Shown here: positions 2,028 to 20,714 of the stretch, in pieces
Position numbering within the stretch: the stretch's first letter is position 1
Layout of the letters: the number at the start of each line of letters is the position of its first letter
DNA from: a virus
Taxonomy: Duplodnaviria; Caudoviricetes
Length of the DNA: 36,258 nt
Virus record (IMG/VR): IMGVR_UViG_3300037511_000277
Span: 1 to 36,258 of that record
Direction: 5' to 3' (one strand)
Position numbers and translations under genes: made by a program
The notes under the pieces: generated by a model
The model's database searches: none
Seen by the model: the letters and a program-made list of their open reading frames with translations, nothing else
What the model was told of the DNA's origin: nothing

Positions 2028-3470
2028 TCAATACGCAAACTTCCGCAGGCGCACGTTCCCGGTGCCCAGGACGCGCCGCGTCACGTCATGACTCAGCGAC
2101 TGGCGCATGTGGCCCACCGTCCCAGGCGGGTAGGCCATCTCCACTTGGGCCTCGGGCGGCGCCTGGCGCGAGGTGGCGATGTAGCGCACCACATCCATCG
2201 CGTGATCTTCGGTGTCGGTGTCGATGTCTTCCGGCTTCTGCTCGTCCATCGTCACTTCGCCGAAGGTGCGGATGGTGTAGGCGCAGCGGGGATGCACGCG
2301 CAGGAACGGCTGGCCGTCGGGGCGATTCCGCAGCCAGGCCCGCACCCGCGCCCAGCCGTTGACGCGATCGTTGTCGGCGCGCTCGCACGGCACCCCATGC
2401 TTGCGGAACGTGTCGAAGTAGGTTTCCGCGCTCTCGTGGCCGCGCTGTTCGTCCATCGACGGGTCAGCGTAGGTGCGGCGGATGGTGAGCCCGCGCGCTT
2501 TCGTGCGGCGGGTGATTTCTTCCGCCACTTCGCGCGCAATCAGCCGCGTCCGCGTCGGGCCGTTGAACACGAATTCGTCCTCGATGTCGAGGAACCCGTC
2601 CGGGTGGAAGCACGCCCACAGATACACGCCGGGGCTGTTGTAGCCCCAGTCCAGGCCGCCGACGCGCGGGAAGCTCGCGGGCGCGGGCTCGAATTCCTGC
2701 ACGTGCACGAGGCGGCGGAATTCAGGGAAGAACTGGCCGAGGAAGATGTCCCAGTCGCCATCGCGATACGCGCGCCGCAGTTCCGGCGGCAGGCGATTGA
2801 GCATCTTCATGTACTGCTTCCAGTCGAGGAACGGATTGTCGGACGGCAGCGCCGGGATGTACTCGTAGTCCTCCGGTCGGTAGTCCGGGTCCTCGTCCTC
2901 GGTCACGTCCTTGTCGATCCAGCGCCGCTTGACCCAGCGCGCCGCGCCGCCGGCGGGATTGGTGGCGCCGCCGACCCGCGGCGTCAGGCCGGGGATGGTG
3001 GTGCGGCAGCAGCTCGAAATGGACAAGTACTGGAACTCGGTGAACGTGACGATTTCATCGAAGCTCTGGCGGTCGTACTCGGCGGAGAGGTACTGGTCCA
3101 CGTCCGTCTCGTGCTGGCAGTGCCCGAACTCGATGAGGCTCCCGTTGGGGAAGTAGAGCACGCCGGCGCCGACATCGGAGGGTTTCCATGTCGCGCCCAG
3201 GAGCTGCGCCTCGGCGGGCACGAAGCGGAGGTGCGAGCGCTGCAGGTCTACCAGCTTGCGGCGGACGATGAGCGATTTCATCCCGGGGACGGCGAGTGAG
3301 GGCAGGTAGTGGTCCCAGCGCAGCGCCTTGGATTTCCCGCAGCCGCGGGAGCCGCCGTACAGCGGGTAGGGCGCCTTGGAGTTGTGATAGGCGACCTGCT
3401 TGGCGAACGGCTGGTAGACGACCTTGCCGTTGATGCGGACCTCGCCGCCCTCCAGGAACCCGGTGCTCAT
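2028..3470 (-). CDS. terL: Terminase large subunit
   Basis: Walker A YGGSRGCGKS, Walker B SFDE, coupling motif ATNP, nuclease motifs GLDWG and DHAMDVVRY; 480 aa. Confidence 0.95.
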   Translation of the reverse strand: MSTGFLEGGEVRINGKVVYQPFAKQVAYHNSKAPYPLYGGSRGCGKSKALRWDHYLPSLAVPGMKSLIVRRKLVDLQRSHLRFVPAEAQLLGATWKPSDVGAGVLYFPNGSLIEFGHCQHETDVDQYLSAEYDRQSFDEIVTFTEFQYLSISSCCRTTIPGLTPRVGGATNPAGGAARWVKRRWIDKDVTEDEDPDYRPEDYEYIPALPSDNPFLDWKQYMKMLNRLPPELRRAYRDGDWDIFLGQFFPEFRRLVHVQEFEPAPASFPRVGGLDWGYNSPGVYLWACFHPDGFLDIEDEFVFNGPTRTRLIAREVAEEITRRTKARGLTIRRTYADPSMDEQRGHESAETYFDTFRKHGVPCERADNDRVNGWARVRAWLRNRPDGQPFLRVHPRCAYTIRTFGEVTMDEQKPEDIDTDTEDHAMDVVRYIATSRQAPPEAQVEMAYPPGTVGHMRQSLSHDVTRRVLGTGNVRLRKFAY

Positions 3471-4522: not shown

Positions 4523-4692
4523 AGCTGAGCTGCCTACCTCTCTCCGTCAGCACCAAAAAATTACAGGCACTCCGGGCCCGTGCTCGAGGGCCGGGGCCCC
4601 TGGTCCGGGTCGCGCGCCGGGCTGACCCCTCCAGGGCTGGGCTGGGGCGGTTCGCTGCGGCTTCGCGCGCTCCGCTGTCGCGCCACCGACAC

Positions 4693-4720
4693 TACCGTAG
4701 CGTGCGACGTTATGTTAACC
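4693..4720 (+). other. dif-like site (XerD arm only)
   Basis: TTATGTTAACC at 4710-4720 matches 9/11 of the E. coli XerD arm TTATGTTAAAT, in an intergenic region of a GC-rich genome; the XerC-side arm is degenerate. Confidence 0.35.
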
Positions 4721-4743
4721 ACCATCCGTAAGCCTAGCGTATG

Positions 4744-5001
4744 CTAGCACTTAGCCTCACCCTTAGCAGTTGACCTAACCGCCCTTATCGGACGCAGGGG
4801 GGATTCGGCCTGTTCTGGCTGGCTTTCGCTTGGGGCCTGCGGTTTCGCTGGCGAAGGTGTCGGGCTGACGGCGTAGCGCTCAGCCATCAGGCGGCGGTAC
4901 GCACGCGTCTTAACACCCCAGGCTGGCTTGCGATTACTTGATGGGAGGTACGGATCGGCCGCTAAGGCGGGCCTTGAAGAGCCTGCATAAACAGTAGGCA
5001 T
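4744..5001 (-). CDS. Hypothetical protein
   Basis: 85 aa, co-oriented with neighbours, weak SD. Confidence 0.45.
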   Translation of the reverse strand: MPTVYAGSSRPALAADPYLPSSNRKPAWGVKTRAYRRLMAERYAVSPTPSPAKPQAPSESQPEQAESPLRPIRAVRSTAKGEAKC

Positions 5002-5312: not shown

Positions 5313-5503
5313 GTATGAATCTCCTTCATGCGGATAATTCGTGTCCGTAATGCGCAACTGAAGCATTCGCGGTCACTACCTGGGTAGACGAGTTGTCCGT
5401 CCCAAGTCGGGTAGCTATAGCTCCGAAGACATCTCCTGCACACCGCGTTGAGGCGCGCCTTGGTCTTGGCGAACTCGAACACGATGTGTGCAGTCGTAAT
5501 CAT
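5309..5503 (-). CDS. Small putative Zn-binding protein
   Basis: CRRC...CFSC pairs; ATGA overlaps on both sides. Confidence 0.6.
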   Translation of the reverse strand: MITTAHIVFEFAKTKARLNAVCRRCLRSYSYPTWDGQLVYPGSDRECFSCALRTRIIRMKEIHT

Positions 5504-5991
5504 TCGCGCTCCGTACTGCGCGCGTTGGTTGCGACCACATCGAGGGCTGGGGCTGGTGCGCCTTGCGGCAACGGCTCATCGCCTGCGAGCAATGATTTAT
5601 TGCTTGCGAGCTGCACGGGGAGGCCGGGCAGGGTGAAGCCGCTGATTTGGACGGCGATGCCCACGGTGGTCTGTTCGACGGGGGTGGGCTCGGTGACGTG
5701 GAGGCGGTCGAGCATATCGCGGGCGGGGCGGTGATCGCCTTTGCGGGCGGCGATGTCAGAGGCGGTGAGGTAGTCGGTGACGAGGGCGACGGCGCTGGCT
5801 TCGAGCACGGCGCGGGCGTCCTGCAGGGCCTCGCGGACTTGCGAGGGCTGGTAGTTCAGCGCGCGGGCGATTTGGGCGTCACTGAAGTTGCGGTCATGGA
5901 GCGCACGAATCGTGAGGCGGTCGGGGAGGGTGAGGGGCGGGCGGCCGACCGGCTTGGCGCGTTCGATGCGGGGCTGGTCGTCAGCGCCCAT
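5500..5991 (-). CDS. Putative terminase small subunit / HTH DNA-binding protein
   Basis: N-terminal GRPP plus HTH (FSDAQIARALNYQPSQV), helical middle, beta-strand C-terminal part; largest ORF upstream of terL in the same operon. Confidence 0.55.
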   Translation of the reverse strand: MGADDQPRIERAKPVGRPPLTLPDRLTIRALHDRNFSDAQIARALNYQPSQVREALQDARAVLEASAVALVTDYLTASDIAARKGDHRPARDMLDRLHVTEPTPVEQTTVGIAVQISGFTLPGLPVQLASNKSLLAGDEPLPQGAPAPALDVVATNARSTERE

Positions 5992-6190
5992 CGGCTTGCC
6001 TCAGCGCGAAGTCAACATCCGCCGCGCGCTCGTCATCCAAACCACGCGGGCGCTCGACACCGTATCGTGGCGTCGCATACCCCAGCTCCCACGCATCGGC
6101 CATCAGCACGCGTACCTCATCAGCCGTATACAGGCGGTCTGTGGCCTGCGCTCCGGGAGAACTGGCCGTGTTGGGAGAAGACTCAGGCAT
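5981..6190 (-). CDS. Hypothetical protein
   Basis: MPESSPNT..., SD GGAGG, 69 aa. Confidence 0.6.
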   Translation of the reverse strand: MPESSPNTASSPGAQATDRLYTADEVRVLMADAWELGYATPRYGVERPRGLDDERAADVDFALRQADGR

Positions 6191-6359
6191 TCCCACCCTC
6201 CGTAGGTTCCCTCCGAGGGTCACGAGCCACAGGCCGAGCGGGTTCAAGGATCGCGAGGAGCTGTCTCACGCCATGGTCACCGAGGTCGCGATTCAACCAT
6301 GTGATCAGGGTGCCCAGGGTGCGCTCCACGCGCGCAAGACGTTCGTCGATGTCGCTCAT
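6183..6359 (-). CDS. Hypothetical protein (58 aa, below ORF-track cutoff)
   Basis: MSDIDERLARVERTLGTLITWLNRDLGDHGVRQLLAILEP...; overlaps start of next gene. Confidence 0.55.
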   Translation of the reverse strand: MSDIDERLARVERTLGTLITWLNRDLGDHGVRQLLAILEPARPVARDPRREPTEGGNA

Positions 6360-6385
6360 GATGTCTGTCTCAGCCTGATCGGTGT

Positions 6386-6658
6386 GGTCCGTGCGGCCCG
6401 CAGCGCGGGGAACCGAAGCGACGCGCGCGGGGACCGTGTAGCCCGCAGGAGCCTACAGGTGAGAGAAGAGAGCACATCTGATAGCTGCCCCTGAGACGCG
6501 AATGGTGGCGGCCATACCGTCACTACAAAGCAGCTTACCGGCGCCAAACGGCCAGATGTACTCACTACTCCCACCCGCATTGCCTCGTGGAGATGCGGAT
6601 GCGGGACGCGACCCCGCTACACAACGCAGGGCGCGGCACGGCTCACTCAAGCCGGACC
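6386..6658 (-). ncRNA. Candidate structured leader RNA of the late operon
   Basis: Starts at the predicted TSS. 5' GGUCC pairs with 3' GGACC. Nested helices GUGUAGC/GCUACAC, GGUGGGAG/CUCUCACC, GAGUACAUCUG/CAGAUGUGCUC and AGCUGC/GCAGCU have G-U wobbles mostly favouring the minus strand. Confidence 0.55.
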
Positions 6659-6663
6659 GCTGT

Positions 6664-6692
6664 AGTCTGCACCCGCGCCGATCCCCTGTCAA
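6664..6692 (-). promoter_or_regulatory. sigma70-type promoter (putative late promoter)
   Basis: TTGACA (6692-6687), 17 nt, CAGACT (6669-6664); the same -10 occurs in the repressor promoter. Confidence 0.65.
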
Positions 6693-9344: not shown

Positions 9345-9606
9345 AAAGCCGGGCTTTTCTCTTTCCCTCAAGAACCCTGCGGGGGGTCTGGAGCGGAAGC
9401 AGTCAGCGAACGGCCTGCCATCCTTGAAATCGCCCGGCACGTGGTGGCGCGTGCACCTGGTTCTTGAGGTCGGGGGGGACAGAAACTCGCCCGGCGCCAA
9501 AATGGTCCCAATTCCCCTCTGGGCTGTGCACTTTCGGGCTGGAAGTGCGAACCTTTACTGCAGACCGCTGCAGACCGCTGACCTTCTTCGGTATCGCGCC
9601 GGTCAG
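9345..9606. other. Structured non-coding block (candidate replication origin or RNA)
   Basis: Perfect 11-bp inverted repeat CCTCAAGAACC (9366-9376)/GGTTCTTGAGG (9459-9469) nested in GCCGGGC/GCCCGGC (9348-9354/9489-9495); further hairpins; tandem CTGCAGACCG x2 at 9558-9577. Confidence 0.5.
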
Positions 9607-9823: not shown

Positions 9824-10496
9824 GGCGCGCTCCTTCCGCTGTGAGGATCCCCATCCTGCGCGCCACATCCCGCACCCTGACGAGATCGGCCAGCAGGTGG
9901 GCGCGCACCTTGTCCCAATCCCCGCGAGCCACACAGGCCGGCACGTCGGCCCCCGTGATGGTATCGGCGACAGGCGGACAGCCGAGACGCTTGTGGTACC
10001 AGTCCAGCGAGTGCATCTGGTGCTTGCGGCCTTCATTCAACTGTTCGAACAGATCGATGACCTGCGTCGAGCGATAGCGGTCGCGGTCGATGGGTTTCGT
10101 CGGCACGCCGAGATAGAGGCTGCGGCGAAGAATCACGGGCAAATCGTAGCTGCGGATGTTGAACCCGCAGAGCACCTCACCCGCGTGATACATGTCCCAG
10201 AACATTTGCAGCGCGAACGTCTCGCCAGCCTCATCGACACATTCCAAGATTGACGGGTGGTCGTAGTGCGGCGGCCAGACACCCAGCATCACGATGCGGC
10301 ACAGGTCTGGGTCGAGCGCGGCGCGGTCGATGAACGCCTGCTTGCGGCGCACCATCGCATCCTTGATGTAGGCCGCGATCTTCTCGGGGTCCTTGTAGTT
10401 TGCTGGCGCCTCGATGGGCTCGCTGTCGTCGTAGTACTTCTCGATGTCCGCGATGGCGGCGCATTCGAGATCGATCAGGGTCGGATCAGAAAGCAT
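9807..10496 (-). CDS. 3'-5' exonuclease, DEDD/PolB-exonuclease-like
   Basis: Exo I IDLEC, Exo II GFNIRSYDLP, Exo III HLLADL. Confidence 0.8.
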   Translation of the reverse strand: MLSDPTLIDLECAAIADIEKYYDDSEPIEAPANYKDPEKIAAYIKDAMVRRKQAFIDRAALDPDLCRIVMLGVWPPHYDHPSILECVDEAGETFALQMFWDMYHAGEVLCGFNIRSYDLPVILRRSLYLGVPTKPIDRDRYRSTQVIDLFEQLNEGRKHQMHSLDWYHKRLGCPPVADTITGADVPACVARGDWDKVRAHLLADLVRVRDVARRMGILTAEGARHEVPV

Positions 10497-11316
10497 CGCG
10501 AGGCTCCTCGTCGTCTAGGCCGCCATCCTCGCGATCCACAGGCGGTTCGCTATCGGACGCGATGCGCGCGCAGATCTCCTCGTACTGCTGGCCGCGCTTG
10601 ATCTTTGAACTGGAGTCGAGCCCGTATTCGGCGTGTAACCACGCCTTCAGTTCGTCCGGCACCCAGGAGTGCTCGCGGGCGATCGCGAACAGGCGCTTCT
10701 GCTGCGCCTCCGAGATACAGCCTTCAACCGTGCTACTCGCGCCGACGGCGCGTGGTTGTTGCGGTGGCGCCTGTCGCGGCCGCTCTTCACGTTCGGCCTC
10801 CTCGGCGCTCACCTCGCCGAAGCCCACGAGGTTGGAGACGGCGCGGTTGAACGCGCGGGTGTGGGCGTGACTGCGCACGTTGTGCTCCGTGGCCTGCCCG
10901 CGTCCCGGCTTCTCGCTTGCGTAGCACGCGCCGTCTCCGTCGGCCGCGCGACCGTTCGGCGCCTTCGCCCGATAGGTCACCAGCCAGCCCCAATTGCCGT
11001 CAGGCAGGACTTCGCGGTGCTCCTCGACCATCGTCACGTCGAGATTGAACGCCGTGCGCACGGCCCGCCAGTACGCCTTCTTGCGGAAGGCGCGGCCCTG
11101 GATGCGCATGATGGCGTCCGGCATCGCCGTGTCCAGCGTCACCTGCAACTGCCGGTAGGCGCGGAACGCCTCGGCCATCTGCTCGCCGCTGAAGACCGGC
11201 AGCGGACTGCCGGGATCGGCCACCGGCACGAGCGCGTGCGTCTCCTCCGGCTGCGGCAGGGCGCGCACGAGGCCGGTCTGCTGCGCGCGCGTGCTGATGT
11301 CTCGAACCGCTTCCAT
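10486..11316 (-). CDS. Putative ssDNA-annealing recombinase
   Basis: AHTRAFNRAVSNLVGFGEVSAEE motif, C-terminal ISEAQQKRLFAI domain, paired with an exonuclease; SD AAGGAG fits ATG 11316. Confidence 0.6.
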   Translation of the reverse strand: MEAVRDISTRAQQTGLVRALPQPEETHALVPVADPGSPLPVFSGEQMAEAFRAYRQLQVTLDTAMPDAIMRIQGRAFRKKAYWRAVRTAFNLDVTMVEEHREVLPDGNWGWLVTYRAKAPNGRAADGDGACYASEKPGRGQATEHNVRSHAHTRAFNRAVSNLVGFGEVSAEEAEREERPRQAPPQQPRAVGASSTVEGCISEAQQKRLFAIAREHSWVPDELKAWLHAEYGLDSSSKIKRGQQYEEICARIASDSEPPVDREDGGLDDEEPRDAF

Positions 11317-11327
11317 GTGCATGCTCC

Positions 11328-11591
11328 TTATCGACCGTCCGCTTCCAGCCTCGCTGGAGGCAGATAGGCGGTCTGCGTATTCACCGCATCGTCGTAGCTG
11401 ACCTTCTTCGTGCTGCCCTTGCGCTTCGCGGGCAGCTCCACCTTGCTCGCGGCAAAGGCGCGCAGCAGCATCAGCGCCGCGTCAAGCTGTGCGGGGTAGC
11501 GCGTGGCCAGCGGGCCGAGAATCTGCGCGCAGCCCGCCACGGTGCTGCGGTCGCTGGTCTGCTGTTCGGGGTTCGGTCGTCGCTTCGCCAT
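11328..11591 (-). CDS. Hypothetical protein
   Basis: 87 aa, fits operon. Confidence 0.6.
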   Translation of the reverse strand: MAKRRPNPEQQTSDRSTVAGCAQILGPLATRYPAQLDAALMLLRAFAASKVELPAKRKGSTKKVSYDDAVNTQTAYLPPARLEADGR

Positions 11592-13330: not shown

Positions 13331-13767
13331 GCGACCCTCCTCTGCTGCGCCCGCACCTGAATGACGTAGGTGCCGATCTCCTGCACGAGCGCCGCGATCT
13401 TCAACATCGCGAAGTCGGCGAGGTCCTGGTGGCTCATCGTCAGTTGCAAGGGGCTTGCGAGTAACGGGAGGAACTCACGCCAGAACTCCGCCGACAACTT
13501 CTGCAGGCGCTGGAAGCTGATGTGCCCATCGCCGTGCAACTGCCGCGACCACTGCGCCGGGTCGATGCCCATCGTGAGCGCCGCCGCCTTGTGCGAGATG
13601 CCGGCCCGATCAAGCGCGATCGAGATGGCCGAGGCGAGATCCAATTGACCCAAGGGGGCCTCAGTCGCATGCGAGTTGACCGGCGATGACCCTGTGTTTC
13701 CGACAGGATCGACTCGCGTTGACGGCTCAGCTCGCAGCATCCTTGCGGACGTGGGAAGGACACTCAT
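13327..13767 (-). CDS. CII-like HTH regulator
   Basis: HTH ISHKAAALTMGIDPAQWSRQL; position right after cro-like gene. Confidence 0.65.
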   Translation of the reverse strand: MSVLPTSARMLRAEPSTRVDPVGNTGSSPVNSHATEAPLGQLDLASAISIALDRAGISHKAAALTMGIDPAQWSRQLHGDGHISFQRLQKLSAEFWREFLPLLASPLQLTMSHQDLADFAMLKIAALVQEIGTYVIQVRAQQRRVA

Positions 13768-19473: not shown

Positions 19474-20714
19474 TCGGGGCCTGGGCCAATCTGGGCCTTG
19501 TACGCCCGAATGGCGGCGTCCGTGCCGAGATCGAAGGCGGCATTCCACTCCTCGGCGCCGTTCAGGCCCCGTCCGAGGTCGATACACCGCTGCGCGACGG
19601 CGGCCGCGATCGCGCGATGGTAGAACGCCAGCGCGCCGCGGCTCGGCACGTCGCCGCCCTGGTCGCGCAACCAAACATGGTCGCGAAAGCGCGCAAGGTG
19701 GTCCACATCGACATCCCAAGGCCACGCGGCCAAGGTGTCACGAATCTGCTGCGGGGTCACGGACATCGTCGGCTCCGGGGGGAGGGGCGGATCTGGAATC
19801 GGGTCAGGCGGTGGCGGTGGCGGCGGTGGAATGACGACATCGCGCGGCACCGGCCCGCGCGCCGCATCGCGCGGCACGGTGGTCGTGCGCAGCTGGCCAC
19901 CGCCGTCCACCGCGACGATCGACCACTGGTCGCCGATGGGACGCACCCGCAGCCACGTCGCCACGAGATCGACGACGATGCAGTCCTGCTCGCCGTAGGG
20001 CCGCCCCAGGACGAGCGATCGGCCGCCGGGGCTGGTCGTGGCCGTCCACAGCCAGAGCGTGCCGTCAGGCGCCTGCACGGGCACCGGGGGGCCTTCCTGC
20101 CGCCACGGCGTGACCGTCACGAGTTCGTTCGCGGTGGCGCCGTTCCGCGACAGCCAGCTCTCGCCGTTGTAGCCGCTGCCGACGTTCCCCTGCGCGTCGA
20201 GCGTGAGCGCGTTGCCGTTCGCCGGGATGCGCACCTTCCGCTGCAGCACGCCCCCGGTGTAGTGCCAGAACTGCGGGGCGCCGTCGGTATCGACGCTGAC
20301 GTGGATCAACTGCTCGCCGGCCACCGAGCCGCCATCGTAGCCGCGCCCTGAGAAGAGGAACGTGCCGTCGTACCAGACCGCGGCGACGCCCTGCTGCGCG
20401 CGGACCGACAGCCAGTGACCATCGGCCGCCCGCATCGTGTTCCCGCCTACGTCCGCTGCCAGCAATGCCGGGGGCGTCTCAAACGAGGCGACCCAGAGGT
20501 CGTCGCTGCCCTCGGGCCGGTAGGCGAACAGTACGTCATTCAGCCAGCCCACGGCGCGTCCGGGGCCGATCTCGACGACGCGCTGCCGATCGGCCGAGAT
20601 GAGCCGCACTGTCGGCGGGTCGGTGCGCGTCCCGCCCCCGCCGCAGCCGAGATCGCCGCGCGCGTTCTGCTCGGCGTTCCAGCCGTCGGTGAAGGGGGCG
20701 GTCCAGATCGCCAT
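19461..20714 (-). CDS. Multi-domain protein (beta-rich N-terminal region, poly-Pro linker, helical domain); N-terminal part of the putative GH fusion
   Basis: 417 aa; PPPPPPPPDPIPDPPLPPEP linker. Confidence 0.8.
   Translation of the reverse strand: MAIWTAPFTDGWNAEQNARGDLGCGGGGTRTDPPTVRLISADRQRVVEIGPGRAVGWLNDVLFAYRPEGSDDLWVASFETPPALLAADVGGNTMRAADGHWLSVRAQQGVAAVWYDGTFLFSGRGYDGGSVAGEQLIHVSVDTDGAPQFWHYTGGVLQRKVRIPANGNALTLDAQGNVGSGYNGESWLSRNGATANELVTVTPWRQEGPPVPVQAPDGTLWLWTATTSPGGRSLVLGRPYGEQDCIVVDLVATWLRVRPIGDQWSIVAVDGGGQLRTTTVPRDAARGPVPRDVVIPPPPPPPPDPIPDPPLPPEPTMSVTPQQIRDTLAAWPWDVDVDHLARFRDHVWLRDQGGDVPSRGALAFYHRAIAAAVAQRCIDLGRGLNGAEEWNAAFDLGTDAAIRAYKAQIGPGPEDPQ

Follow-up and report, generated by a model that had tools for sequence, protein, structure and literature searches.

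The packaging RNA (pRNA) of phage phi29 has its own promoter. The portion of PMC5066667 that treats this RNA describes a structure conserved at 12% sequence similarity and presents the RNA as unique to phi29-like motors. Among leader RNAs, put is given in the relevant passages of PMC9378689 as about 70 nt long, with two stem-loops just past PL, and sections of PMC8191782 describe the conAn2 regions as 260-600 bp and poorly conserved. The C4 RNA of phages P1 and P7 is, in the parts of PMC5320573 that concern it, a mature RNA of about 77 nt with three stem-loops, the loops of which complement its own downstream mRNA. Here we describe a predicted 273-nt structured non-coding RNA (6386..6658, minus strand) adjoining the DNA-packaging genes of a soil phage.

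The stretch of DNA analyzed, hereafter the window, is an IMG/VR record of 36 kb (IMGVR_UViG_3300037511_000277; 36,258 nt) that is 85% complete and has 66% G+C. The phage is temperate and encodes an integrase as well as HTH regulators. Among the terL homologues, one bears the label Usitatibacter (from a MAG bin), and the integrase matches carry no organism. The element lies on the minus strand between early/middle genes and packaging genes (Table 1), and its ends at 6386 and 6658 were placed from the predicted closing stem. From position and architecture, the product of 5500..5991 is likely the terminase small subunit (terS), although a fold search with it returned no match at E<=0.001. A non-coding block after this gene (4540-4790, minus strand) is kept in G001, L027 and L028 and recognizable in L046 and L055 (related loci described below); its GC-rich palindromes end in an A/T run, and it is likely a packaging-start region that is also terminator-like.

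Table 1. The element and neighboring features, in window coordinates
Feature	Position	Strand	Description
terminase large subunit (terL)	2028..3470	-	PHROGs 979/2
GC-rich palindromes + T-run	4540..4640	-	conserved; sole strong terminator-like site between RNA and terL; likely packaging-start region
HTH protein, likely terS	5500..5991	-	HTH_38, helical model
first downstream ORF	6183..6359	-	58 aa; differs between close relatives; no Pfam match
hairpin H5	6397..6431	-	peripheral; absent from distant members
hairpin H4	6442..6459	-	predicted, close subfamily only; constrained fold; invariant sequence
H3, exchangeable arm	6460..6573	-	unalignable to G001 arm; folds as rod
hairpin H2	6574..6599	-	6 bp, 3' bulge, 4 bp
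hairpin H1	6607..6635	-	8-nt loop GUYGNNYA at 6625-6618; p 0.9-1.0
P2, 5' strand	6637..6642	-	invariant CGUG; predicted partner 6438-6433
P1, 5' strand	6653..6658	-	pairs with 6391-6386; p ~0.9
sigma70-type promoter	6664..6692	-	TTGACA (6692-6687), 17-nt spacer, CAGACT (6669-6664)

A sequence-only reading of the window had proposed a structured leader RNA beginning at this promoter with GGUCC, and both the promoter and GGUCC at 6658 (minus strand) are present. The promoter is missing from a consensus-scan list because its -10 agrees with the consensus at 3 of 6 positions. In G001, the one close relative found in IMG/VR, the -35, the spacing and the -10 are kept while the spacer sequence differs, and in all five sequences measured TTGACA-17/18-YAGNCT is followed by exactly 38 nt to the H1 loop. 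A start at 6658 and "late" timing are predictions from spacing and position. Of 14 other promoters examined, 9 are followed by an ATG no more than about 12 nt from the -10. The early regions of L046 (5242-6765) and L055 (3404-6360) carry several near-consensus sigma70 promoters with palindromic operator-like spacers, and an ATG at this short distance from each -10 implies leaderless or short-leader mRNAs; the RNA promoter has no spacer palindrome. In G001, a perfect inverted repeat of 7 bp, which may be an operator, overlaps an internal late promoter at 20327.

Over the whole element, the two strands gave z -2.6 for the minus strand (3/200 shuffles as stable) and -3.6 for the plus strand (1/200). 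The inner rod reached z -5.3 (0/200 shuffles); across 81 control windows from the genome, the lowest value was -3.6. No terminator was found after the predicted 3' end of the RNA. The ORF at 6356-6580 (74 codons), which overlaps the element and whose conservation as a protein had been named as counting against the RNA, does not keep its frame in G001, and among 1.84 billion protein representatives it had one match, a repetitive 783-aa protein judged spurious; this points away from a conserved protein-coding gene. Rfam 15 covariance models at the gathering threshold gave 0 matches in the window and none over the element even at E<=10, and in the distant members described below they matched only the neighboring tRNA-Lys. 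ARAGORN predicted no tRNA or tmRNA gene in the window or in G001, and INPHARED phages and PLSDB plasmids contained no relevant match to the element. Likenesses to RNase P, SRP, tmRNA, 6S, Y RNA, retrons and group II D5 were dropped, as there was no Rfam match and no reverse transcriptase among 62 ORFs. Our literature search found no description of this RNA: four supplements of PMC10690425, which reports 10,000 candidate viral RNAs, contain no motif or sample match, and the family may be in its alignment archives and three large files, which lay outside the search.

Comparison with G001 revealed the main feature of the element, which the sequence-only reading had overlooked: a constant scaffold that carries an exchangeable central arm. 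The terS and terL proteins of the two phages are 86% and 73% identical, and terL is 76% identical in DNA. In the RNA, positions 1-87 and the final 76 nt agree throughout (87/87 and 76/76). No exact match between the genomes is longer than those formed by the scaffold halves, at 102 and 87 nt, the next being 85, 83 and 74 nt. Those of 85 and 83 nt lie at 11244-11328 and 13424-13506 of the window and may be recombination linkers or regulatory elements. Between the scaffold halves, 42 of 111 columns of the central arm are identical (shuffled, 30+-7%). The G001 arm is also rod-like, with a z of -5.3 equal to that of the window arm, and as RNA both arms are more stable on the promoter strand than on the other (-64 vs -50.5 and -62.5 vs -47.2).

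Public sequencing runs provided further arms. The search listed 24 runs from 20 studies. X1 is possibly the source, and 17 further DNA runs contain 0.35-0.48 of the element words, where a scaffold-only match gives 0.38. Assembly from four DNA runs (19-69% of each read, large runs subsampled) yielded no contig bridging the element. Soil RNA-library runs, which were chosen by matching this element, gave contigs on it in 4 of 4 examined. Two of these contigs, X19 and X20, bridge the element with the arm replaced by 92 and 84 other letters, the boundaries of the replacement falling either side of the arm base, and a third enters another unrelated arm. X20 extends 14 nt into the promoter, and X19 and X22 extend beyond the 3' end; such contigs may derive from DNA, and they give no strand, ends or level. 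The two scaffold differences in X20 both fall in H1, where one keeps a G-U pair and the bulge is removed.

These observations bear on whether the element acts as DNA, for example as a cruciform, an R-loop, a packaging-linked protein site or a recombination linker, with its folding incidental. Both strands fold well, other exact matches of 60-85 nt exist between the window and G001, and the G008 region contains interspersed DNA repeats. We nevertheless consider this account quite unlikely, given the promoter at a fixed distance, the variants that keep G-U pairs on the promoter strand, and arms that are far more stable as RNA on that strand. Separately, a 10-nt tandem repeat in the replication-gene region of the window (9560-9585, minus strand) shares an 8-mer with the RNA start (6654-6661), and the downstream region of G008 resembles that phage's own replication-region repeats, a likeness absent from G001 and G007. 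A link between the element and such repeats holds for the window and G008 but fails in G001 and G007, and it was rejected.

Sequence barely connects the window to more distant members (nhmmer E 4.6 for L067), which emerged when 18 related loci were scanned for promoters ahead of terL/terS. Structured non-coding DNA follows TTGACA-17/18-TAGNCT in L046 (G007), L055 (G008), L049 (identical to L055) and L067, and their terL is 57-63% identical to that of the window. The distant members and the window have in common a CGUGYCGC motif, a hairpin with a GUYGNNYA loop, a GCGU motif and a 6+4-bp hairpin with a 3' bulge; the CGUG of P2 is invariant in all members. In the distant members, the first ~143 nt form a fold of their own (z -2.4 to -3.6), in which a bulged stalk leads to a four-way junction, and for this fold the MFE structure equals the centroid or lies within 0.1 kcal of it, independently in G007, G008 and G032. 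The opposite strand folds slightly better in G007 and G008 (z -3.4 and -4.2). At the homologous place the distant cores are closed by GUCCG/CGGAC or GGGCG/CGCCC, with CUCCA a few nt past P1; a ~360-nt reading of these members, with the P1 partner at about +360, was dropped for the 143-nt core with the partner at +140. As modeled, the window RNA is this 143-nt core plus the long H3, H4 and H5.

Covariation had been put forward as a check on the RNA, and it supports the core. Across four distinct core sequences from about three lineages, in an alignment fitted to the structure, 7 of 20 pairs showed two-sided change (0/500 shuffles; at most 2 in slid controls). In a hand count, 96 of 96 cells were paired and 8 of 24 pairs had changed on both sides. 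Two-sided changes are seen at two positions of P1, where G007 differs from G008/window, and in 3 of 10 pairs of H1; H2 shows covariation of multiple types. Together with the conserved promoter, the lack of an Rfam family and the lack of a conserved ORF, these data support the earlier suggestion of an undescribed phage non-coding RNA.

Run over 50 related records, a covariance model (R1) gave five strong matches, of which four were training or identical sequences, and no further member emerged among these records, most of the negatives being fragments; in the same search, members were present in 3 of 9 near-complete records. Five records with weak R1 matches (E 0.0015-0.04) were rejected on inspection. 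Exact-motif scans of IMG/VR gave real matches in 1 of 19 cases, 1 of 3, 1 among 119 listed (45 of 64 parts scanned) and, in the final pattern scan, 5 of 34, all in phages already named here, with the remainder due to chance. Ten of 64 parts of a metagenome collection held two close terS matches, both without upstream DNA, and a GTDB scan returned one distant terS-like match. The 729-aa terL homologue P0032 carries an intein-splicing domain (PF14890).

In the window itself, three states are near-isoenergetic: the homolog-supported fold at -132.0, a long-rod fold at -136.1 and the fold of the sequence-only reading at -132.7 kcal/mol. The five helices named in that reading are all present, and two of them contain one G-U pair each on the minus strand. 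H2 has a probability of only ~0.4 in the full-length ensemble and P2 one of 0.04, the stalk being strongly predicted in G007 and G008. The rival of H2 in the window is the base of the long rod, which is present only in the close subfamily and is invariant there; covariation favors H2 (CCGCAU/AUGCGG), which is the conserved state. This hairpin had been offered as one of two mutually exclusive pairings. The other, GUGUAGC/GCUACAC (6616-22/6436-42), is a perfect complement, yet it has a pairing probability of ~0.00-0.01, would open the covarying hairpin H1 and has no consistent counterpart in the relatives compared. In predicted folding during synthesis, H1 and H2 have both reached p 1.0 once 90 nt are made, and H2 meets no competitor until about nt 205. 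The N-terminal extension of P0011 implies a shorter version of H5.

The similar energies of the three states could suggest a two-state cis switch (an attenuator or translational riboswitch) controlling the first downstream ORF or terS, and the P0011 contig seems to put the RNA ~100 nt before terS. We regard such a switch as hardly probable: the competing strand is missing from the distant members, the alternative pairing is restricted to the close subfamily and without variation there, no terminator or clear occlusion of a ribosome site follows the RNA, and no gene comes after it in G007/G008.

Gene order reinforces this last point. Homologues had been expected upstream of terS, which holds for the window. 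In G007/G008, terS comes first and is followed by the promoter and the RNA; beyond non-coding DNA and a pac-like site come a convergent operon with tRNA-Lys and, last, terL. The RNA is therefore not a terS 5'UTR, because in these genomes it lies downstream of terS and heads no gene. The tRNA-Lys(UUU) (L046 ~9880-9950; L055 ~9870-9945) is on the strand opposite terL and heads the convergent operon of small ORFs; it may serve in counter-defence against anticodon nucleases.

A cis-acting processive antiterminator of the put/EAR/conAn2 kind stays a candidate, because in 4 of 4 genomes scanned no later sigma70-like promoter stands between the RNA promoter and terL, and a conserved hairpin and T-run lie between the RNA and terL in all four. 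H1 and H2 would form on the emerging transcript and alter the polymerase so that it passes the pac-region hairpin/T-run and reaches terL; the arm would be a tolerated insertion or a folding timer. The fixed 38 nt between the -10 and the H1 loop, the early predicted formation of both hairpins, and the 2.0-2.3 kb of largely untranslated sequence in G007/G008 agree with this mechanism. H1 and H2 together span 62 nt and start ~24 nt after the predicted start, in the manner of the two adjacent stem-loops of put. The absence of a Q-like antiterminator gene noted earlier was also upheld, with no Q/N/NusG-like match among 62 ORFs in PHROGs or 30 in Pfam. In contrast, the end-closing stalk covaries, the promoter of G007/G008 comes after terS, internal promoters serve the late regions of G001, G007 and G008, and the window has only three terminator-like sites on this strand. 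By eye, no conserved -10-like element was noticed in the first 30 nt, and a search for a ConAn1-like gene found neighboring small ORFs with no Pfam match and no small protein common to both subfamilies. The earlier proposal of a late-gene switch or put-like antiterminator is possible but is not the better reading of an RNA that heads no gene in distant relatives and closes its own ends; we consider antitermination possible, though doubtful.

Our preferred reading, at a probability of roughly 0.4, is a discrete RNA that acts in trans, binds a protein and carries an arm for specificity. The analysis shows the conservation of the promoter, the covarying core (P1, H1, H2), the replacement of the arm and the changing gene context. 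Transcription would start at about 6658, and trimming or release would occur at the P1 end; the H1 loop, the H2 bulge and the junction would form a protein-binding surface, with the core docking a protein partner and the arm giving lineage-specific recognition. Recombination within the identical flanks would exchange the arms. The search for a partner protein found none. That the role is one of decoy or exclusion, as counter-defence during terminase expression or in the lysogen, is a more tentative idea that we consider rather unlikely as stated. Similarly low is our confidence in a wider modular class of phage RNAs, in which an invariant core docks protein and a recombination-swapped double-stranded arm sets specificity (as decoy, exclusion factor or guide precursor), or which serves as packaging RNA in a terminase-type motor.

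Variable arms could also pair with the phage's own transcript, as in a C4/CI-type antisense immunity RNA. The cloverleaf-like core, the leader position, the GGU start and the variable region echo C4 (PMC5320573). However, the best own-genome complements are 12-16 nt and are equalled by cross-genome or random-window controls, and the best complement of all (25 nt, 92%, in G008) is equalled by 3 of 60 random windows. There was no Rfam C4 match, no own-mRNA match above controls of the kind that the C4 loops make and no antisense target beyond cross-genome controls, and we find this explanation very improbable. An antisense or spacer origin of the arm was likewise rejected, as it did not rise above controls.

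A packaging RNA analogue, binding prohead or terminase as phi29 pRNA does and possibly self-associating through its loops, is in our view unlikely. The element is beside terS and a pac-like site in two different gene orders, and its long bulged stalk, junction and own promoter resemble pRNA. The phages, on the other hand, have a conventional terL and likely terS, and inspection revealed no loop-loop complementarity in a consistent register: complements of 5-9 nt to the H1 loop exist, have no common register and are matched by the downstream background.

Few families of phage non-coding RNA can show a core backed by covariation. A constant scaffold whose arm can be replaced outright and yet still folds is the mark of an arms-race specificity module or a natural RNA chassis. 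Should the element prove to be an antiterminator, it would join the three RNA-based types (put, EAR and conAn2) counted in PMC8191782, and would do so at a packaging operon; if it had a packaging role, it would overturn the view of pRNA as confined to phi29-like phages. With short (143 nt) and long (250-273 nt) forms both occurring in nature, either idea is open to a direct test.

Compared with described systems, the element resembles the large phage RNAs ROOL and GOLLD in being a structured phage RNA of unknown function with a tRNA nearby in G007/G008, but it is much smaller and without an Rfam match. It resembles C4 (PMC5320573) as a phage leader RNA with an end-closing stem, several stem-loops, a variable part and a 5' GGU; unlike the ~77-nt C4, it measures 143 nt as a core and 273 nt in the window, and its variable part is a paired arm of 84-114 nt rather than a short loop. 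With the prohead RNA of phi29 it shares a bulged stalk, a multi-way junction and a link to packaging. It differs in having a four-way junction and no consistent interlocking loops, and its phage has terL, likely terS and an integrase, where pRNA belongs to a phi29-like motor without terminase subunits. Finally, like put, EAR and conAn2, it places two adjacent hairpins within ~60 nt just past a sigma70 promoter in a phage with no recognized antiterminator protein; unlike them, it has no identified conAn1-like protein, lies at the packaging module rather than at early promoters, and has its hairpins set inside a covarying stalk that joins the 5' and 3' ends, along with an arm that can be exchanged.
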